Positions 10,365 to 35,020 of a stretch of 64,000 nt of DNA are shown in pieces. Origin of the DNA: Rhizomicrobium sp. Its GTDB lineage: Bacteria; Pseudomonadota; Alphaproteobacteria; Micropepsales; Micropepsaceae. Every line of letters begins with the position of its first letter. The stretch's first letter is position 1. The notes below the pieces were generated by a model. The model made no database searches. It saw only the letters and a program-made list of their open reading frames with translations, and was not told where the DNA came from. The stretch is from the NCBI GenBank assembly GCA_035275465.1, contig DATEMS010000047.1, positions 12,960-76,959 of the forward strand, given 5' to 3'. A program made the translations under genes and the position numbers.

Positions 10365-12257
10365 TCACTGGCCGCTGCCGGTGAGGGACGCAACCGCCTG
10401 CTGATTGACCCTCACTTTCTGGCGCTCGCGCGCTGCGGCGGCCAAGGCATTGGTGAAATCCTGTGCCACCGATTGCGAGAAGCGCGCGATACCGCCCTGG
10501 AAGTCGGGGTCCTGGGGACTAAACATGGGATGGGCGATGCCGGTGATGCGGGCGATCACATAATTGCCCGACAGGCCTTGCGGTCCGAATGCCACGCCGC
10601 CGGCGCTCGCGGAGAACAGTTTCTCCGCCATGGCGGCGCTGAACATGGTGTCGTTGACGGTGCGGCTCAGGGCTGGGCTGTGCTGGATCGATACGTTCAA
10701 TTGCCTGGCGACGCTGTCGAGCGATTTCTCCTTGACGGCTTGGTCGGCAAGGCTTTGCGCCTTGGCGGCCAGCGCCTTGGCGCGCTGCTCGCCGGTCCAG
10801 TCCGCCAGCACCTGGGCGCGTACCTGCTCCAGCGTCTTGGCTTTGGGCGGAGTCGTGCCGTTGACATGGATGGCGTAATAGGCCCCCAGCTTGGTGGGGA
10901 AAGGCTCGACGTCCTCGCCGACTTCACCCCGAAACAAGGCGGGCAGGAAATCGGGGTCGGCGGGCACATCGGCCTTGCCGCCGTCCGGCGTCAGGCCGGT
11001 GGCGTCCACGGCGGTGACGCGCACCAGCTTCATGCCGGCCTTTTTGGCGGCCTCGGCCAGCTCGTCGCCGCTGGAGCGCGCATCGGTGAAAAGATTGACC
11101 GCGTCCACCAGCTTGTTGGCGGCCAGCTTATTGGCCAGGTCTTTGCGGATGTCCTCTTTGACATCGGCCAACGCCTTGGAAGAGCCGGGCGTGATCTTGG
11201 TCACCCGCGCCAGGACGAAACCGCCAAAGCCGGTCTTGATAGGCTGGCTGACTTCATTCAGCGGCAGCGCGAAGATGGCTTTGGCGCGGTCGGCATCGGG
11301 AAACTCTTCCTGGGTCAGGGTGCCCAGCGAAATCTGTTCCGGCTTGAGGCCGCGCTCCGCAGCGATGTCCTCGTAGCGGGCGCCCGACGCGATCTTGGCG
11401 TGGGCCGCCCGGGCCTCGGCTTCGGTCTTGAATTCGATCTGCTGCACATCGCGTTTTTCGGCGATGATATAAGTGCTTTTGGCGGCGTCGTAGCTGCGCT
11501 GAATCTGCTCGTCGGTGACGGCGACGGACCCCATCACATCGTCGGGCGCGATGGCGGCATACTGGGCGTCGCGATATTCCGGGGTGGAATAGCGGCCGCT
11601 ATGGCTCTTGAGATAGGCCGCCAGCACCGTGTCGCTGGGTGCGGGGATCTCGCCCGCCTGTTCCGGCGCCAGGATCACATACGCCACCGCGCGCTTTTCG
11701 TTGGCATGCTGGAAGAAGGCCTGGGCATAGGTCACCGGAACGGTGAAGTTGGCTGCCACCGCCTGGAGCAATTGCGCGCGCGTCATGTCGTTGCGCAATT
11801 CGTTGAGGAATTGCGCTTCGGTATAGCCGGCATTGCCGATCGCCTGCATGAAGGTCATGCGGTCGAATTGGCCCAACGTACCGCGGAACGGCGCCATGCT
11901 GCGCACGGCCTGCACCAGCGTGGCGTCGGACGTGATGAGCTTCAACCGATGAGCCTCATTGTTGAGAGCGGTGCGGTCGATCAGGCTTTCCAGCACCATG
12001 CGGGACAGCCCCATCTTTTCCGCCATTTCGGGCGTGATCTCGCTGCCGGTTTCCCGGCCCTGGTTGCGCAAATAATTGCGGTAGGAGCGCTGGAATTCCG
12101 CCGGGCTGATGTCGGTGCCGCCCACAGAGGCCACCGCGGTGGTGGCGCCGCCCGTGAACACGTCGGCGATGCCCCAGACCACAAAACTCAAGGCCAGGCC
12201 GCCCATCAAAAGAATGGCGATCCAGGACTTGGAAAGCGCGTGCATCCATTGAATCAT
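10365..12257 (-). CDS. ppiD: Membrane-anchored periplasmic chaperone/PPIase (SurA N-terminal plus parvulin domain)
   Basis: N-terminal TM (LSFVVWG), SurA-like N domain, YSTPEYR and rotamase-like segment; conserved position between trpE and tpiA. Confidence 0.85.
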   Translation of the reverse strand: MIQWMHALSKSWIAILLMGGLALSFVVWGIADVFTGGATTAVASVGGTDISPAEFQRSYRNYLRNQGRETGSEITPEMAEKMGLSRMVLESLIDRTALNNEAHRLKLITSDATLVQAVRSMAPFRGTLGQFDRMTFMQAIGNAGYTEAQFLNELRNDMTRAQLLQAVAANFTVPVTYAQAFFQHANEKRAVAYVILAPEQAGEIPAPSDTVLAAYLKSHSGRYSTPEYRDAQYAAIAPDDVMGSVAVTDEQIQRSYDAAKSTYIIAEKRDVQQIEFKTEAEARAAHAKIASGARYEDIAAERGLKPEQISLGTLTQEEFPDADRAKAIFALPLNEVSQPIKTGFGGFVLARVTKITPGSSKALADVKEDIRKDLANKLAANKLVDAVNLFTDARSSGDELAEAAKKAGMKLVRVTAVDATGLTPDGGKADVPADPDFLPALFRGEVGEDVEPFPTKLGAYYAIHVNGTTPPKAKTLEQVRAQVLADWTGEQRAKALAAKAQSLADQAVKEKSLDSVARQLNVSIQHSPALSRTVNDTMFSAAMAEKLFSASAGGVAFGPQGLSGNYVIARITGIAHPMFSPQDPDFQGGIARFSQSVAQDFTNALAAAARERQKVRVNQQAVASLTGSGQ

Positions 12258-20124: not shown

Positions 20125-21099
20125 ATGCCCGATGCTGCAAAAAGCAATTCTGAATCCCTGAAGAAACTCTACCACGACATGCTGCTGATCCGCCGATTCG
20201 AAGAACGGGCGGGGCAGCTTTACGGCATGGGCCTGATCGGCGGCTTCTGCCATCTCTATATCGGCCAGGAAGCGGTGGTGGTGGGCCTGATGGGTGCCGC
20301 CAAGCAGGGCGACCAGCAGATCACCGCCTATCGCGACCACGGCCATATGCTGGCCCAGGACGTCGATCCCAAGGCGGTGATGGCCGAACTGACGGGGCGT
20401 TCCACCGGCCTGTCGCGGGGCAAGGGCGGCTCGATGCACATGTTCTCGTCCGAGAAGAAATTCTATGGCGGCCACGGCATTGTCGGCGCCCAGGTGCCGA
20501 TCGGCACCGGCCTGGCTTTCGCCAACAAATATCGCGGCAATGATGCGGTCTGCCTGACCTATTTCGGCGACGGCGCCGCCAATCAGGGTCAGGTCTATGA
20601 AAGCTTCAACATGGCCGAGCTGTGGAAGCTGCCGGTCGTCTATGTGATCGAGAACAACCAGTATGCCATGGGCACCAGCGTGGCGCGGTCGTCCGCGGTG
20701 GCGGACTTTTCCAAGCGTGGCGCCTCCTTCGGCATTCCCGGCATGAGTGTGGACGGCATGGACGTGGAGGCGGTGCAGGCCGCAGGCCTGGAAGCGTTCG
20801 AATTCTGCCGCGGCGGCAAAGGCCCGATCATCCTGGAGATGAAGACCTACCGCTATCGCGGCCATTCCATGTCGGACCCGGCCAAATACCGCAGCAAGGA
20901 AGAACTGACCGAGATGCGCGAGAAGCGCGATCCGATCGAGAATTTCGGCAAGAAGCTGATCGAGCGCGGCTTGGTGAATGAGGAAGATCTGAAGCAGATG
21001 GATGCCGAGGTGAAGCGGGTGGTGGTCGCCGCCGCCGAATTCGCCACCGAGAGTCCGGAACCTGGCCTGGCTGAACTTTATACGGACATATACGCCTGA
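20125..21099 (+). CDS. pdhA: Pyruvate dehydrogenase E1 alpha
   Basis: [28 protein letters not shown]...[15 protein letters not shown]. Confidence 0.98.
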
Positions 21100-22511
21100 T
21101 GAGCACCCAAATCCTGATGCCCGCGCTGTCGCCCACCATGGAAGAGGGCAAGCTGTCCAAATGGCTGGTCAAGGAGGGCGATACCGTCAAGTCCGGCACC
21201 ATCCTGGCCGAGATCGAGACCGACAAGGCCACCATGGAATTCGAGGCCGTGGACGAAGGCAAGATCGGCCAGATTCTGGTGGCCGAAGGCACCGAAGGCG
21301 TGAAAGTCAATTCGCCTATCGCGCTCCTGCTGGCCGATGGCGAAGCGCCGGGCGCCGCGCCGGTGAAAGCTAAAGCGCCGCAGGTCCCCCTCACCCAAAG
21401 CGGTGCGGATGGAAAGAGCGCCGCCTCACGTCCCCTCTCCCCCCAAGGGGGAGAGGGCGCAGCGCGAAGCGCTGCGGGTGAGGGGGTGGAAGTCGCCGCC
21501 GATCCGGAAGTCCCCGAAGGCACGCAATTCGTCAATCAGACGGTGCGCGACGCGCTGCGCGACGCCATGGCGGAAGAAATGCGCCGCGACGATCTAGTAT
21601 TCCTGATGGGCGAAGAAGTCGCCGAATATCAGGGCGCCTATAAAATTTCCCAAGGGTTGCTGGAGGAATTCGGTGCCCGCCGGGTGATCGACACGCCGAT
21701 TACCGAACATGGTTTCACCGGGCTTGGCATCGGTGCGGCCTTTGACGGTCTCAAACCCATCGTCGAATTCATGACCTGGAACTTCGCCATGCAGGCGATG
21801 GATCAGCTGATCAACTCCGCCGCCAAGACCCGCTACATGTCCGGCGGCCAGATGAGCTGCCCCATCGTGTTCCGCGGCCCCAATGGCGCGGCCGCCCGCG
21901 TCGCCGCCCAGCACAGCCAGGATTACAGCGCCTGGTATGCCAGTGTGCCGGGCATGAAAGTCGTCGCGCCCTATTTTGCCGCCGACGCCAAGGGCTTGCT
22001 GAAAGCCGCCATCCGCGATCCCAATCCGGTGATCTTCCTGGAAAATGAGATCGTTTATGGCCGGTCGTTCCCGGTTCCCAAGCTGGACGATTTCGTGCTG
22101 CCGATCGGCAAGGCGCGCATCTGCCGCGCCGGTGCGGACGTCACCATCGTGGCTTACTCGATCACGGTCGGCCAGGCGCTGGAAGCCGCCGAGAAGCTGG
22201 CAGAGGAGGGTATCGACGCCGAGGTGATCGATCTTCGCACCCTGCGTCCGCTGGATATGGACACGGTGCTGGAGAGCGTGAAGAAGACCAACCGCATCGT
22301 CACCATGGAGCAGGGCTGGCCGGTCTGTTCGGTGGGCTCGGAGATTTGTGCGCGCGTGGCGTTGGAGGCCTTCGATTATCTCGATGCCCCGCCGACCAAG
22401 GTCTCGGGCAAGGATGTGCCCATGCCCTATGCCGCCAATCTGGAAAAGCTGGCGCTGCCGACGGTTGAGGACCTGATTCAGGCCGTCAAAGCCGTCTGTT
22501 ACAAGGCTTAA
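21099..22511 (+). CDS. pdhB: Pyruvate dehydrogenase E1 beta with N-terminal lipoyl domain
   Basis: Lipoyl ETDKA motif; [36 protein letters not shown]. Confidence 0.98.
21386..21486. repeat. Palindromic repeat element inserted in frame inside pdhB
   Basis: Outer stem CCCCCTCACCC/GGGTGAGGGGG; inner stems CCCTCTCCCCC-caa-GGGGGAGAGGG and CGCAGCGC-gaa-GCGCTGCG; same family as extragenic copies at 30243 and 34179. Confidence 0.85.
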
Positions 22512-22515
22512 GCAC

Positions 22516-23823
22516 ATGGCCACCAACATTCTCATGCCGGCACTATCGCCCACCATGGAAGAGGGCAAGCTCGCCAAGTGGCTTGTGAAGGAAGGCGACA
22601 CCGTCAAGTCCGGCACCATCCTGGCCGAGATCGAGACCGACAAGGCCACCATGGAATTCGAAGCGGTGGACGAGGGCAAGATCGGCAAGATCCTGGTCCC
22701 CGAAGGCAGCGAAGGCGTCAAGGTCAACGCCCCCATCGCGGTGTTGCTGGATGACGGCGAAAAACTGGGCGATGTGGATATCGCGGGCGCCATGAAAGAC
22801 ATCAAGGCGGCGGTGAAAGCCGAGGCCGGTGCGCCCGCGCCCAAAGCTGCTATTCCTGCGGCTCCCGTACCCGCCGCCAAGGTGGATGGCGCGCGCATCT
22901 TTGCTTCGCCGCTGGCCAAGCGCATCGCCGCGACCAAAGGCATTGATATTTCCGCACTGGCCGGCTCGGGTCCGCGCGGGCGCATTGTTAAGTCGGACGT
23001 GGAAAATGCCAAACCGGGTGCGAAACCCGCTGGCGCCGCCACCAGCACCACCGCAGGTGGCGCGTCAACAAGTCCCGGCGTGGCGCCGCTGCCCGATGCG
23101 CGGCTGCTCTATCCGGCGGGTTCCTATGAAGAAACCCCGCATGACAATATGCGCAAGGCTATCGCCAAGCGCCTGACCAGCGCCAAGACGCTGATCCCGC
23201 ATTACTACCTGACCATCGATTGCAATCTGAATGCCCTGATGGCGGTGCGCGAAAAGATGAACGCCGCCGCGCCCAAGGGTAAAGATAAGGTCCCGGCCTA
23301 TAAATTGTCGGTCAACGACTTCATCATGAAGGCCTCGGCCATGGCCTTGATGAAGCATCCGGATGTGAACGCCTCCTGGACCGACACCGCCATCCTGCGC
23401 CACAAGGACGCCGATGTCGGCGTGGCGGTGGCGCTGGATTTCGGCCTGATCACACCCATCGTCTTCAAGGCCCAGACCAAGGGGCTGGTGGAGATCAGCA
23501 ACGAGGTCAAGACCCTGGCCGCCTTGGCCAAGGAAAAGAAACTCAAACCCAATCAGTATGAGGGCGGCGGCTTCTCGGTCTCCAATCTGGGCATGTACGG
23601 CATCAAGAATTTCACCTCCATCATCAACCCGCCGCAAAGCTGCATTATCGCGGTGGGCGCGGGCGAAGAGCGCGCCATTGTCGTGAACGGCAAGATCGAA
23701 GTCGCCACGGTGATGACGGTCACCATGTCGGCGGATCACCGGGTGGTGGACGGCGGCACCGGCGCTAAGTTCCTGGCCACCCTCAAACAGTTCATCGAGG
23801 AACCAGCCTCGATGCTGCTGTAA
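22516..23823 (+). CDS. pdhC: Dihydrolipoamide acetyltransferase (E2)
   Basis: Lipoyl ETDKA, E3-binding ASPLAKRIA...[13 protein letters not shown], catalytic SADHRVVDG. Confidence 0.97.
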
Positions 23824-25240: not shown

Positions 25241-25320
25241 TTCGTCATGGCCCGCTTTATGCGGGCCATCCATACGGTGACAGGGTTATGGATGGCCCGG
25301 ACAAGCCGGGCCATGACGAA
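25241..25320. repeat. Extragenic palindromic repeat (GTCATGGCCC...GGGCCATGAC family)
   Basis: 13-bp outer stem TTCGTCATGGCCC/GGGCCATGACGAA with internal hairpins GGCCCGC/GCGGGCC and GCCCGG/CCGGGC, directly after the lpdA stop. Confidence 0.85.
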
Positions 25321-26293: not shown

Positions 26294-26350
26294 GGGCCGC
26301 GTCCTTATCACGCTGGGCGATACCGTCCTAGGCGCATAAGATCGCGCCCC

Positions 26351-26941
26351 ATGTATATCCCAGACCATTTCCGCGAAGACCGGCCCGAAGTGCTGCACGA
26401 TGCCATGCGGCGGATCGGCTTTGCCACGCTGGTGACGCAGGGGTTGGATGCCAATCACCTGCCGATGTTGCTCGAAGGTAATGTGTTGCGCGGTCATGTC
26501 GCCCGCGCCAATCCGGTGTGGAAGGGGGGCGTGGGCGAGGCGCTGGCGGTTTTCCTGGGGCCGCATGCCTATGTCTCGCCCAACTGGTATCCCGGCAAGG
26601 CTGCGACCGGCAAAGCGGTGCCGACCTGGAACTACATCACCGTGCATGCCAGGGGCACAATCCATTGGATTGAGGATGCCGAATGGTTGCGCGCCAATGT
26701 CGGGGCGTTGAGCGCCGAGCATGAAGCGGGCAGGGATCAGCCCTGGAAGATTGAGGATGCGCCGGCCAGCTACATCGAGGGAATGTTGCGCGCCATCGTC
26801 GGGTTTGAGTTGAGAATTGAGGCGCTGGCCGGCAAATGGAAGCTCAGTCAGAACCGCGACGAAGCCGACCGAGCAGGGGTGCGCGAGGGCTTGCTGCGTG
26901 ATGGGCAGGACGATCTTTCGCGTCTGATGGACCGATCCTGA
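26351..26941 (+). CDS. PaiB-family (FMN-binding split-barrel) protein
   Basis: MYIPDHF, GHVARANP, HAYVSPNWY, VPTWNY, GKWKLSQNR. Confidence 0.9.
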   Translation: MYIPDHFREDRPEVLHDAMRRIGFATLVTQGLDANHLPMLLEGNVLRGHVARANPVWKGGVGEALAVFLGPHAYVSPNWYPGKAATGKAVPTWNYITVHARGTIHWIEDAEWLRANVGALSAEHEAGRDQPWKIEDAPASYIEGMLRAIVGFELRIEALAGKWKLSQNRDEADRAGVREGLLRDGQDDLSRLMDRS

Positions 26942-27828
26942 TGCGCGCCTGGTTATGGTATGCGGCGCTCTTGCTGCTGGGCGCAGGTCTCTATCTGGTC
27001 TGCCGTCTCTATCCTGCCTATCTGCCCTTCTGGCTGCCCTGGGAATTTTCCTGGCCGATCTATCTGGCGACGGCGCTCACCTTGGCCTGGTTTTTCCATG
27101 GATTGAAGCTGTTGCCGAAAGACCGGCATCCGCCGCTATGGCGGCTGGCCTGTTTTGTGCTGGGCCTGGCCAGTTTCTGGATCGTGCTGCAAACCGGCAT
27201 CGATTATTACGCCCAGCACATGTTCTTTGTGCACCGGGCGGCGCATTTTGTGCTGCATCATTTCGGCGCCTTCCTGATCGCGCTGGGCATGAGCGGGCCG
27301 GTCTTATTTGCCGGCATGCCCGATTTTCTCAAACCCTTGGTGACGGCGCGCCCGGTTCAGGCCGTGATGTCGTTCTTGCAGCATCCTGTGATGGCGCCGT
27401 TCTTGTTCGTGGGGCTGCTCTATTTCTGGCTGATTCCCAGCCTTCACACCCGGGTGATGCTGGACGCCAATCTGTATGAATTCATGAACTGGACCATGGC
27501 CGTCAATGGCGTGATGTTCTGGGCCCTGATCCTGGATTCCCGCGCCAAGCCGCCCGCGCGGCTGTCGCATCTGATGCGCGCGCTCCTGATCCTGGTGATC
27601 GAATTGCCCCAGATGGTCTTGGGTTCCATCCTGTCGCTGACGGAACGCGACATCTATCCGGTCTATACCATTTGCGGCCGTGTGCTGGACATGACGGCGC
27701 TGAACGATCAACATTATGGCGGGCTGATCATCTGGCTGCCCGGCACCTTGACCAGCTTCGCCGCCATGATTGTGGTATTGGTGACCATGCGCTTGAACGA
27801 GGAAAGGCAGGAACGTGAGATCGCTTAG
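26941..27828 (+). CDS. Cytochrome c oxidase assembly factor, Caa3_CtaG-like membrane protein
   Basis: Multi-TM; HMFFVHRAAHFVLHH and DQHYGGLIIWLPG motifs; TGATG coupling to the PaiB-like gene. Confidence 0.8.
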   Translation: MRAWLWYAALLLLGAGLYLVCRLYPAYLPFWLPWEFSWPIYLATALTLAWFFHGLKLLPKDRHPPLWRLACFVLGLASFWIVLQTGIDYYAQHMFFVHRAAHFVLHHFGAFLIALGMSGPVLFAGMPDFLKPLVTARPVQAVMSFLQHPVMAPFLFVGLLYFWLIPSLHTRVMLDANLYEFMNWTMAVNGVMFWALILDSRAKPPARLSHLMRALLILVIELPQMVLGSILSLTERDIYPVYTICGRVLDMTALNDQHYGGLIIWLPGTLTSFAAMIVVLVTMRLNEERQEREIA

Positions 27829-30242: not shown

Positions 30243-30338
30243 CCCCTCATCCGGCTCGGTGCTTACGCACCTCGCCACCTTCTCCCACAAGGGGAGAAGG
30301 AAAGAAGGCCCTCTCCCTTGTGGGCTCGGGTGAGGGGG
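30243..30338. repeat. Extragenic palindromic repeat (CCCCTCA..CC / CTTCTCCC family)
   Basis: CCCCTCATCC...GGGTGAGGGG outer stem and CCTTCTCCC-acaag-GGGAGAAGG inner stem, upstream of msrA. Confidence 0.8.
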
Positions 30339-32936: not shown

Positions 32937-32974
32937 AGTGTGATCCGGTTTCCCTGAAACCGGATCACACTCTA
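32934..32974. repeat. 19-bp perfect palindrome (TAGAG...CTCTA repeat type) / bidirectional terminator
   Basis: TAGAGTGTGATCCGGTTTC-cct-GAAACCGGATCACACTCTA between convergent genes. Confidence 0.8.
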
Positions 32975-32996
32975 GAATTTTGGTTTGTCGCGCAAT

Positions 32997-33515
32997 TTAC
33001 CGGAAAATCGATCCCGATTTTCCGGATTGCGCTTTTGCCGTCAGCACTTCGTCCACCCGCGCATCCAATTCCGCGCAGAGTGCCTGGGCGATCTTGTCGC
33101 CAGTGTCCTTCAGGCCCTGTTTGTGGATCACTTGAATGGCGTTGACATGGGCGTCCACCAGCTGGAGCGGGATGGCAGCCCCCGGCGGCAAATCCCCGAT
33201 CATGCGCGTCAGCGACGATGCCACCCGCGCGATCAGGGGGAAATTGAAGGTGGGGGCCTGGCCCTTGATGTCATGGGCGGTGCGCAGCAGCGCGGCGCGG
33301 GCCTCATCATCCGGGGTGGCGGCATAGCGGGCGCGGGCGGCGATCAGCGCTTTTACATCCGTGGCGATCCAATCGTCGAATTCGCCTTTCAGCGCATCCA
33401 TTGCCTGTTCGGCGCGCTGGATGGCGGCCATGTCAACGCCGCCTTTGCCGCCGCCGACTTTGGCCTTCAGCATATTGGGCGGCATGAAAAGCTCGATGGG
33501 TTTTTGGCGCGCCAT
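32997..33515 (-). CDS. Stand-alone Hpt (histidine phosphotransfer) domain protein
   Basis: AHDIKGQAPTFNFPLI (H-x-x-K-G motif), helical; 3 nt downstream of the CheY-like gene. Confidence 0.82.
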   Translation of the reverse strand: MARQKPIELFMPPNMLKAKVGGGKGGVDMAAIQRAEQAMDALKGEFDDWIATDVKALIAARARYAATPDDEARAALLRTAHDIKGQAPTFNFPLIARVASSLTRMIGDLPPGAAIPLQLVDAHVNAIQVIHKQGLKDTGDKIAQALCAELDARVDEVLTAKAQSGKSGSIFR

Positions 33516-34031: not shown

Positions 34032-34178
34032 GCCCCAACACCCGGCTCCGGCCGGGACTTTCTACAGGCGTCATATAGCTTAATGGGGCTTAAGCGTTGG
34101 TGAATGGGGGCAACATTCTGCCCCTACGGCCCTTCTCGAGCGCCGCATATCGCGGCGCGACCCTCAACATTCGCCAGC

Positions 34179-34267
34179 TTCCTTCCCCCTTCGTGCGCAG
34201 CACAGGAAGGGGGAAGGTGTCGCAGCGAAGTGTCGGCGGAGCCGACCTGAGCTGCGACGGATGGGGG
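34179..34267. repeat. Extragenic palindromic repeat (CCTTCCCCC family)
   Basis: CCTTCCCCCTT/AAGGGGGAAGG, GTCGCAGC/GCTGCGAC and GTCGGC/GCCGAC stems immediately after the nadK stop. Confidence 0.8.
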
Positions 34268-35020
34268 TCAATCAGAAAACTGTTCCGCCAGAATGCGCTC
34301 GTCCAGGCTATGGCCGGCATCGTAGAGCATGGTCATGGAAATGGTCCGGTCCTCGGCCACGTCCACGGCCACCACGTCGCGCACTTCCGAATCGTCGGCC
34401 ACCGCGCTAACCGGACGCTTGCCGCTTTCTAGAATCTCGAACCGCACCTGGGCGCGGTGGGGCAGAAGCGCCCCGCGCCAGCGGCGGGGACGGAAGGCCG
34501 AGATCGGGGTCAGCGCCAAAAGATCGGCGTCGATCGGCAGGATAGGGCCATGGGCGGACAGATTGTAGGCCGTGGAACCGGCAGGCGTCGCCACCAGCAC
34601 GCCATCGCAGATCAGCTCGGAAATGCGGGGTCTCTCATCCACCAGAATGCGAATCTTGGCGGCCTGGCGGGTTTCGCGCAGCAGCGAGACTTCGTTGAAG
34701 GCATGCGCCTCCTTGGTGCCGGCCTGGGTATGGGCCACCATTTTGAGGGGGTGGATCACCGCCCTTTCCGCCGCCGCCAGCCGCTCCAACAGATCGCCCT
34801 GATGATACTCGTTCATCAAGAAGCCGACAGTGCCGCGGTTCATGCCATAGATCGGCCTGTCCTTGCCGATGAAGGCATGCAGGGTTTGCAACATGAAGCC
34901 GTCGCCGCCCAGCGCCACCACAATATCCGCCGCCTCCGGCCCGGCATCGCCATAGCGGGCACGCAAGCTGGCCAGCGAATCTTCGGCTTGCGGCACGGCC
35001 GTGAAATGCAGTTTGGTCAT
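34268..35020 (-). CDS. nadK: NAD kinase
   Basis: [46 protein letters not shown]. Confidence 0.96.

Follow-up and report, generated by a model that had tools for sequence, protein, structure and literature searches.

An in-frame palindromic repeat of BoxC/PIT/TM-like architecture in the lipoyl linker of pdhB in Rhizomicrobium

The element in pdhB and its repeat family

How does a palindromic repeat come to be part of a core metabolic enzyme, and is it a recent arrival or an old resident? The question is raised by a 101-nt multi-hairpin element at 21386 to 21486 of the 64,000-nt stretch of DNA analyzed here (hereafter, the window; contig DATEMS010000047.1 of assembly GCA_035275465.1). The element lies in frame in pdhB of a Rhizomicrobium metagenome-assembled genome (MAG), in the linker between the lipoyl domain and the core of the E1 beta subunit of pyruvate dehydrogenase (PDH). 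The segment is repeat derived, in frame, old, and polymorphic, and it replaces linker sequence. In our judgment, it is probably a dispersed repeat copy of the BoxC/PIT/TM type that was fixed in frame in the pdhB tether and that persists as an old, patchily distributed allele and not as a fresh insertion.

Based on open reading frame (ORF) prediction and Pfam, pdhB is intact, extends from 21099 to 22511 on the forward strand, and encodes a 470-residue protein with the domains Biotin_lipoyl (residues 4 to 76; coding part at 21108 to 21326, forward strand), Transket_pyr (residues 148 to 319), and Transketolase_C (residues 337 to 458). Because it combines a lipoyl domain with two E1-beta domains, we identified the product as alphaproteobacterial PdhB. 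It is 85 to 93% identical to Rhizomicrobium PdhB proteins, and its closest matches are proteins of Rhizomicrobium MAGs from soil and rhizosphere. The element, including a GCGAAGC motif at 21464 to 21470, was found with exactly the sequence and coordinates given in the initial annotation, which had also predicted about 34 residues encoded without a frame break; we count 35 element-derived codons (codons 96 to 130; 21384 to 21488, forward strand) that contain no stop and of which 63% specify Gly, Ala, Ser, or Pro. Three of the six reading frames of the element are free of stops. The element is present at the same site in five other independent assemblies, and a 301-nt unitig from a public run spans 21266 to 21566 with zero differences and at a depth equal to that of the flanks; because of this agreement, the element is not an assembly artefact. 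We found no RNA run containing the element stretch. The quality of an AlphaFold2 model of PdhB was poor throughout (mean pLDDT of 37.5), which makes its low confidence in the linker uninformative, and the model was not used.

The element reads CCCCCTCACCC-AAA-GCGGTGC-GGATGGAAAGA-GCGCCGC-CTCACGTC-CCCTCTCCCCC-CAA-GGGGGAGAGGG-C-GCAGCGC-GAA-GCGCTGC-GGGTGAGGGGG. The left terminal block (21386 to 21396), invariant in eight alleles, is the C-rich complement of the G-rich third-strand block. It is followed by hairpin 1 (GCGGTGC ... GCGCCGC; 21400 to 21424), which is variable, decays in its stems with no compensating changes, and, by folding and alignment, separates a pdhB type from a pdhC type of the element. 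The nearly invariant central pyrimidine/purine hairpin (21433 to 21457; 11 bp) forms the triplex-motif core; a search of the window with this CT-hairpin pattern gave 1 match against 0.00 expected. The mini-hairpin GCAGCGC-GAA-GCGCTGC, or hairpin 3 (21459 to 21475), and the invariant right terminal block (21476 to 21486), a mirror repeat of the purine arm and putative third strand, complete the element. The two terminal blocks are inverted repeats with 11 of 11 nt complementary, as in a miniature inverted-repeat transposable element (MITE). As RNA, the element has a folding energy of −76.6 kcal/mol (z = −5.8), matched by 0 of 200 shuffles, and, as DNA, one of −39.7 kcal/mol (z = −6.8), matched by no shuffle.

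For three decades, the BoxC/PIT/TM repeats have remained an orphan family. TM_ECO motifs are identical to the BoxC repeats of the 1990s and the PIT (potential intrastrand triplex) elements of 2000 (Holder et al. 2015, NAR 43:10126, PMC4666352). They read CCCTC(T/G)CCC-loop-GGGAGAGGG-TTA/CCG-GGGTGAGGG in units of 34 to 37 nt with a second loop of 3 nt (TTA or CCG; loops of 1 to 6 nt were searched by the authors), and all 23 copies in E. coli K-12 are intergenic (PMC4666352). TM motifs occur in >260 genomes, form triplexes in vitro, and mark loci that are more variable between strains (PMC4666352). Judged by its sequence, the element in pdhB is a variant of this BoxC/PIT/TM_ECO "intrastrand triplex" repeat superfamily, an assignment based on its repeats, fold, and relatives. 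Compared with Table 1 of PMC4666352, it has an 11-bp perfect pyrimidine/purine hairpin with a 3-nt loop, and its third G-rich block GGGTGAGGGGG mirrors GGGGGAGAGGG with one T for A, as GGGTGAGGG does in E. coli. Shared with BoxC/PIT/TM_ECO are the succession of CCCTCTCCC(C), loop, GGGAGAGGG, second loop, and GGGTGAGGG(G), the third block mirroring the purine arm, as well as the pairing of inverted units and the strong variation of carrier loci between close strains. In contrast to the E. coli units, one central hairpin here serves two opposed third-strand blocks, one per strand, and each block is set off from the hairpin by a spacer hairpin of ~19 to 35 nt. On the right, an 18-nt spacer (21458 to 21475) with its own mini-hairpin stands in place of the 3-nt loop, a long-loop variant that is common elsewhere. 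Finally, the E. coli units are always intergenic, whereas here the whole 101 nt, located inside pdhB and in frame, is predicted to be translated in an essential gene.

Dispersed copies share the family layout, in which two spacer hairpins flank a central CCCTCTCCCC/GGGGAGAGGG hairpin and CCCCTCACCC and GGGTGAGGGG form the outer blocks. In pattern scans of viral contigs, the end pair CCCCTCACCC-N60-90-GGGTGAGGGG was present in 21 loci, and the right half with a 12- to 30-nt spacer was present in 22; these loci are mosaics of the same modules, namely the CCCTCTCCCC/GGGGAGAGGG hairpin, GGGTGAGGGG, and, in many cases, a small GC hairpin whose loop is of the GAA type. The architecture pattern identified five further copies in metagenome contigs, all outside PDH genes and intergenic as judged by their flanks. 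Two of them, which have the left spacer of the window copy and match it at 77% and 71% identity, place the closest non-PDH copies found at 71 to 77% identity. A very specific right-half pattern had no match in the metagenome contigs, a collection that evidently lacks the samples of two pdhB carriers described below (L002 and L003), and Rfam has no family for the element at E ≤ 1.

The initial annotation had named extragenic relatives at 30243 and 34179 of the window. The former is a relative, albeit a distant one: the intergenic sequence CCCCTCATCC ... CCTTCTCCC-ACAA-GGGGAGAAGG ... GGGTGAGGGGG at 30243 to 30338 has the terminal blocks and a CT hairpin in common with the element, is only 41% identical to it (nhmmer E = 0.014), and is missing from the orthologous spacer of the nearest relative of the window, L004 (GCA_035281345.1). 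At the latter, the likeness is confined to the folded layout of a CT-rich hairpin, a second hairpin, and GGATGGGGG (34176 to 34268), and nhmmer gave no match to the element at E ≤ 10. The broader proposal, that repeat-derived DNA is read in frame in a core enzyme, as for Rickettsia palindromic elements (RPEs), and has dispersed intergenic relatives, is borne out. On the protein side, searches with the element peptide returned no family other than PdhB and PdhC. A profile of the peptide had only 5 weak matches among 1.84 billion representative proteins; the three of these that we inspected are repetitive low-complexity ORFs, two of them resembling translated repeat arrays.

Alleles at the pdhB and pdhC linkers

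The element peptide is present in 3 of the 120 best PdhB relatives, and a region search added a fourth, partial carrier. In these four pdhB carriers (L001, L002, L003, and L047), the element occupies the same site in the same orientation and frame, and its DNA is 84 to 95% identical to the window copy, while the rest of the gene has 82 to 87% DNA identity to the window and its four-fold sites have 63 to 76%. The initial annotation had described the repeat family as active here. That view does not fit a same-frame element in five other pdhB alleles that are only 82 to 87% identical in DNA, nor does it fit the source sample, which contains no near-identical second copy (sharing 31-mers) because the unitig is unbranched at the flank depth of 9.5.

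L004 is syntenic with the window at 94 to 98% nucleotide identity and has an ordinary, element-free pdhB linker. The flanking pdhB sequence of the two is 97 to 98% identical over the first 900 nt and 93% identical in the 3' third. The blastn blocks stop at 21363 and restart at 21489, and the adjoining sequence is identical on both sides. What lies between in the window is a 125-nt cassette (21364 to 21488, forward strand) in which the element is preceded by 22 nt of left linker and followed by 2 nt and which, by blastn and alignment, has no homology to L004; its counterpart in L004 is an ordinary Ala/Pro/Lys/Glu linker segment of 89 nt. The swap adds 12 residues net, and the resulting linker of 69 residues falls within the range of 50 to 71 (median, 58), with carriers among the longest. 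The earlier picture of a repeat that simply adds peptide and lengthens the swinging arm, therefore, gives way to one of replacement. When the linker is left out of the PdhB tree, the four carriers require 4 changes, of which at least 2 are forced, and the window protein belongs to a 98%-supported trio with two element-free proteins.

A sister element exists in pdhC, which encodes E2. In the window, pdhC (22516 to 23823, forward strand) has an ordinary, element-free linker between the lipoyl domain and the PSBD (22818 to 22896). In the same linker of L004, we identified a 104-nt sister element (2702 to 2805; −74.5 kcal/mol) in frame, so that the window and L004 differ by cassette swaps in both the pdhB and the pdhC linkers. 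The sister peptide (strict pattern VPLTPAAANGKAAASVPLSPKGGEG...GEG) is present in 26 of the 120 best PdhC relatives, including truncated, decayed, and nested forms. At the DNA level, the alleles of L128, L129, and L130 share this length and layout and have a hairpin 1 unlike the pdhB type. The hairpin 1 type is strictly tied to the site, all five pdhB copies being of the B type and all pdhC copies of the C type. Hairpin 3 exists in two fully paired versions, the alternative GGTGCGGC-GAAG-GCCGCACC being present in pdhC alleles; the two versions are out of register in the alignment, and the invariant helices give no covariation information. We considered a transfer of the pdhB element from an L004-type pdhC element; with only 70% identity and differences in hairpins 1 and 3, there was no recent transfer. 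The element needs 15 changes on the PdhC tree, at least 4 of them forced, and the element-free PdhC of the window is sister to a carrier with 99% identity. In the six contigs with both genes, the element is in the pdhB or the pdhC linker, never in both. Sequence exchange between the two genes is indicated by a 62-nt tract in their lipoyl-coding parts (21183 to 21244 in pdhB, forward strand; 22600 to 22661 in pdhC) that is identical including synonymous sites, which suggests gene conversion between paralogous lipoyl-coding segments.

The pdh loci also display smaller insert-like features. The pdhC element of L130 (3836 to 3972) has an extra 36-nt hairpin nested in frame in the 3' arm of its central hairpin (peptide, SEGRARDQARPV), and the same nested insert is also present in proteins P0133 and P0184. 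A 150- to 190-nt repeat of the GTCATGCCCGCGAAAGCGGGCAT / GTCATGGCCCGG type lies at the extreme 5' end of pdhC in L001 (2484 to 2630) and L130 (3311 to 3500); copies of the initial ~40 nt of the gene border it on either side, leaving a remnant of the old start before and a new intact start after. In different relatives (P0008, P0011, P0026, P0136, P0147, P0195, and others; L001 3128 to 3151), the pdhB linker and the two pdhC linkers repeatedly contain the short motif (P)PGGGAA(Q/H/N)Q, much as though another small unit had been inserted. A second small palindrome is not obvious at 'PGGGAA(Q/H)Q', and the sole DNA example folds weakly.

To place these alleles in a wider frame, we surveyed 1.56 Mb around pdhB from 80 alphaproteobacterial genomes, the window, and L004; the 80 genomes are among the matches listed and are mostly distant relatives, the best at 85%. 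These loci contain 31 pyrimidine/purine hairpins of the element type, of which 22 look intergenic and 9 are in frame in PDH linkers, and every in-frame hairpin is in a PDH linker. Besides those of the window and L004, the in-frame hairpins belong to a Methyloceanibacter MAG (pdhB and pdhC), a Hyphomicrobiaceae MAG (pdhB), and two other MAGs (pdhC).

Origin and maintenance of the element

In the reading that we favor, a ~100-nt GC-rich palindromic repeat copy would have become fixed in the disordered tether that joins the lipoyl domain to the E1-beta core. Translated in the only stop-free frame with a Gly/Ala/Ser/Pro-rich product, it would give a peptide, presumably a disordered stretch, that serves as a tether in place of the middle of the usual Ala/Pro/Lys/Glu linker; because the ordinary linker middle is substituted, little effect on the enzyme is expected. 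The element probably arose once at each of the pdhB and pdhC sites, and both alleles are now patchy in Rhizomicrobium. The likely cause of this patchiness would be that homologous recombination swaps or replaces whole linker cassettes, the crossovers falling in the strongly conserved flanks, and the known instability of TM-bearing loci may contribute. The elements may persist because lipoyl linkers tolerate almost any flexible sequence, and tolerance of ~100 extra in-frame bases there would explain why they are seen in coding sequence at PDH lipoyl linkers.

Several observations weigh against this reading. The carriers do not cluster on the PdhB tree; their short linker flanks differ, and the distance between the element and the conserved flanks shifts by a few codons from allele to allele; no recombination tract can be seen directly; and the element is more alike between carriers (84 to 95%) than the four-fold sites of the same genes (63 to 76%). 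Conservation above the synonymous rate is not expected of a purely neutral passenger and is unexplained. Differing flanks, scattered carriers, and high element identity are what repeated independent insertion of a conserved source element would give.

Accordingly, the first alternative is recent or recurrent transposition, in which an active family, possibly with the help of a DUF559-type or other enzyme, hit the pdhB and pdhC linkers independently in several lineages and selection kept the Gly/Ala/Ser-rich frame. Apart from the scatter on the gene trees, the differing flanks and exact positions, and the conservation above neutral sites, this alternative gains from the reading frames: because three of six are open and one of these gives a linker-like peptide, the shared frame is weak evidence for common descent. 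It also gains from other repeat families that clearly moved between the window and L004, e.g., in the ~98-nt insertion at 32937 to 33034, and from inverted TM units that bracket DUF559 genes in L049, L078, and L108. We nevertheless consider transposition unlikely. The strict tie between hairpin 1 type and site is not expected from random draws from a pool, linker sequence was replaced and not added to, and a target-site duplication is absent: neither the pdhB flanks (...CGCAGGT / TGGAAGT...) nor the L004 pdhC flanks (...GGAAGT / CTAGAAT...) contain a direct repeat. Moreover, the unbranched unitig leaves no sibling sharing 31-mers in the sample, and the best of the non-PDH copies found are only 71 to 77% identical.

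The second alternative is selection on the nucleic acid structure, whether a strong mRNA or DNA structure right behind the lipoyl-coding segment that pauses ribosomes or polymerases or a protein-binding or recombination site that promotes cassette exchange. Its main support is that the four triplex blocks, i.e., the terminal blocks and the CT hairpin, are invariant in eight alleles, synonymous positions included; 16 of 19 four-fold-type columns are invariant in the element versus 96 of 180 in the gene core (p = 0.013). In addition, hairpin 3 is fully paired in both of its versions, TM-type elements are present at the same kind of pdhB/pdhC site in four further alphaproteobacterial lineages, and TM loci are reported to be unstable (PMC4666352). 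Based on the conservation above the synonymous rate, the structure itself may have a role. This alternative is doubtful, however: most relatives do without the element, including ~94 of the 120 PdhC and 114 of the 120 best PdhB proteins; decayed, shortened, and interrupted copies persist; hairpin 1 decays uncompensated; and PIT elements are reported to have shown no promoter, terminator, or polymerase-blocking activity in vivo (PMC4666352). Simple tolerance equally predicts recurrence at linkers, and the sample is small. An extension of this alternative, to which we assign a similarly low probability, regards the translated palindrome as a maintained nucleic acid module, with TM-type elements repeatedly kept behind PDH lipoyl-coding segments across Alphaproteobacteria. 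By pausing translation, such a module could give the lipoyl domain time to fold and become lipoylated, or it could drive linker-cassette exchange, and the DUF559 endonuclease of the family could be the enzyme that recognizes the structure.

That there is no repeat element at all but an assembly chimera or a low-complexity linker with chance hairpins is most improbable: linkers are compositionally biased and GC rich and MAG assemblies can be chimeric at repeats, but six independent assemblies agree, the unitig shows no difference, fold z values are −5.8 to −6.8, and the element matches dispersed intergenic elements module for module. We, therefore, retain the old, patchy allele of a dispersed repeat as the probable explanation.

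Related repeat systems and candidate partner genes

In-frame "selfish" palindromes are textbook knowledge only for Rickettsia, for which RPEs were reportedly described by Ogata et al. in Science in 2000 and in Genome Research in 2002. As summarized in PMC10969869, RPEs are palindromes of ~100 to 150 bp that lie in frame in conserved genes, are translated where the fold tolerates them, and also occur intergenically; in R. conorii, dozens of unrelated genes reportedly carry RPEs. The element in pdhB resembles RPEs in being a palindromic repeat in frame in a conserved gene and compatible with the fold. It differs from them in belonging to another sequence family and in its host, a free-living GC-rich soil alphaproteobacterium; moreover, only PDH linkers were hit here, as judged by the pdh loci and the peptide searches, and the insert replaces linker and is polymorphic between near-identical strains. 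The host, its GC content, and the modules point to the BoxC type instead of families RPE-1 to RPE-10.

Intragenic GTAG/CGTC-tagged repetitive extragenic palindromes (REPs) are palindromes located wholly within ORFs, where they contribute 20 to 80 residues (Di Nocera, De Gregorio and Rocco 2013, BMC Genomics 14:522, PMC3733652). They are thought to be neutral because they occur in modular proteins, and their targets are mainly DNA repair genes (PMC3733652). Similar to these REPs, the element in pdhB is an extragenic-type palindrome entirely inside an ORF. In REPs, a conserved GTAG or CGTC marks one end of a 20- to 40-bp palindrome; here, the head is not consistent, the tetranucleotide before the CT hairpin being CGTC in the pdhB type, TGTC in L004 pdhC, GTTC in L128 and L129, and TTTC or CTTC in intergenic copies. 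The partner gene flanked by REPs is a RAYT (HUH tyrosine transposase), and the gene flanked by TM units in related loci is DUF559. In-frame palindromic repeats are already known from Rickettsia and from intragenic REPs in many species, and here it is the BoxC/TM family that is involved. What is unusual is the occurrence of sister alleles at two linkers, their turnover between near-identical strains, and conservation above neutral.

With MITEs, the element shares a length of ~100 nt, perfect 11-bp terminal inverted repeats, the lack of its own coding capacity, and the existence of larger units with the same ends. In contrast to MITEs, it has no target-site duplication, and the larger units encode a DUF559 endonuclease and no known transposase; they also have the CT hairpins at their outer ends, opposite to the order in the 101-nt element. 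In related loci, inverted TM units flank each of the three DUF559 (PF04480) genes (L049, 1875 to 2327; L078, 14902 to 15378; L108, 140 to 584): one flank has the CT hairpin, the mini-hairpin, and GGGTGAGGGGG, and the opposite flank has their reverse complement. On this sequence evidence, TM-flanked DUF559 genes are candidate autonomous partners of the BoxC/TM repeat family. There is no DUF559 gene in the 64,000 nt of the window, and in the literature we found no paper linking DUF559 with BoxC/PIT/TM repeats. In L108 (110 to 620), a possibly carB-like gene starting MP(K/R)RTDI..ILIIGAGP has the DUF559 gene and its inverted TM ends inserted at its 5' end, and the 5' coding segment of the recipient gene is present on both sides of the insert.

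Over the 13.5 kb compared between the window and L004, every indel is at a repeat element or a linker, except for one ~640-nt, gene-sized gap in L004. The gap corresponds to 26317 to 26956 of the window; because L128, L130, and the P0127 contig have a PF04299 (FMN_bind_2) gene there, it is probably a deletion in L004. The insertion at 32937 to 33034 is clean, belongs to another hairpin repeat (AGTGTGATCCGGTTTCCCTGAAACCGGATCACACTCT... type), and is missing at 11776 to 11777 of L004 in sequence that is 94 to 96% identical. Right after lpdA, the window (25241 to 25320) and L004 (5255 to 5340) have diverged versions of a hairpin repeat of the GTCAT(G/T)(G/C)CCGC family, followed in the window by ~400 extra bases with a small ORF that are missing in L004.

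Together, these data describe what appears, from its sequence, to be a TM-type element that a free-living soil bacterium translates as part of an essential enzyme, as opposed to the strictly intergenic description of such elements. The flexible tethers of the PDH complex appear to be a recurrent landing place for them in several alphaproteobacterial lineages. For annotation, odd 'PLSPxGGEG...GEG' stretches in proteins should be read as repeat derived. Strains that are otherwise 97 to 99% identical alternate between linkers with the element and ordinary ones, and this provides a natural series for studying how much linker sequence matters, whether selection acts on DNA or RNA structure, and how the family moves, for which DUF559 is a concrete lead.

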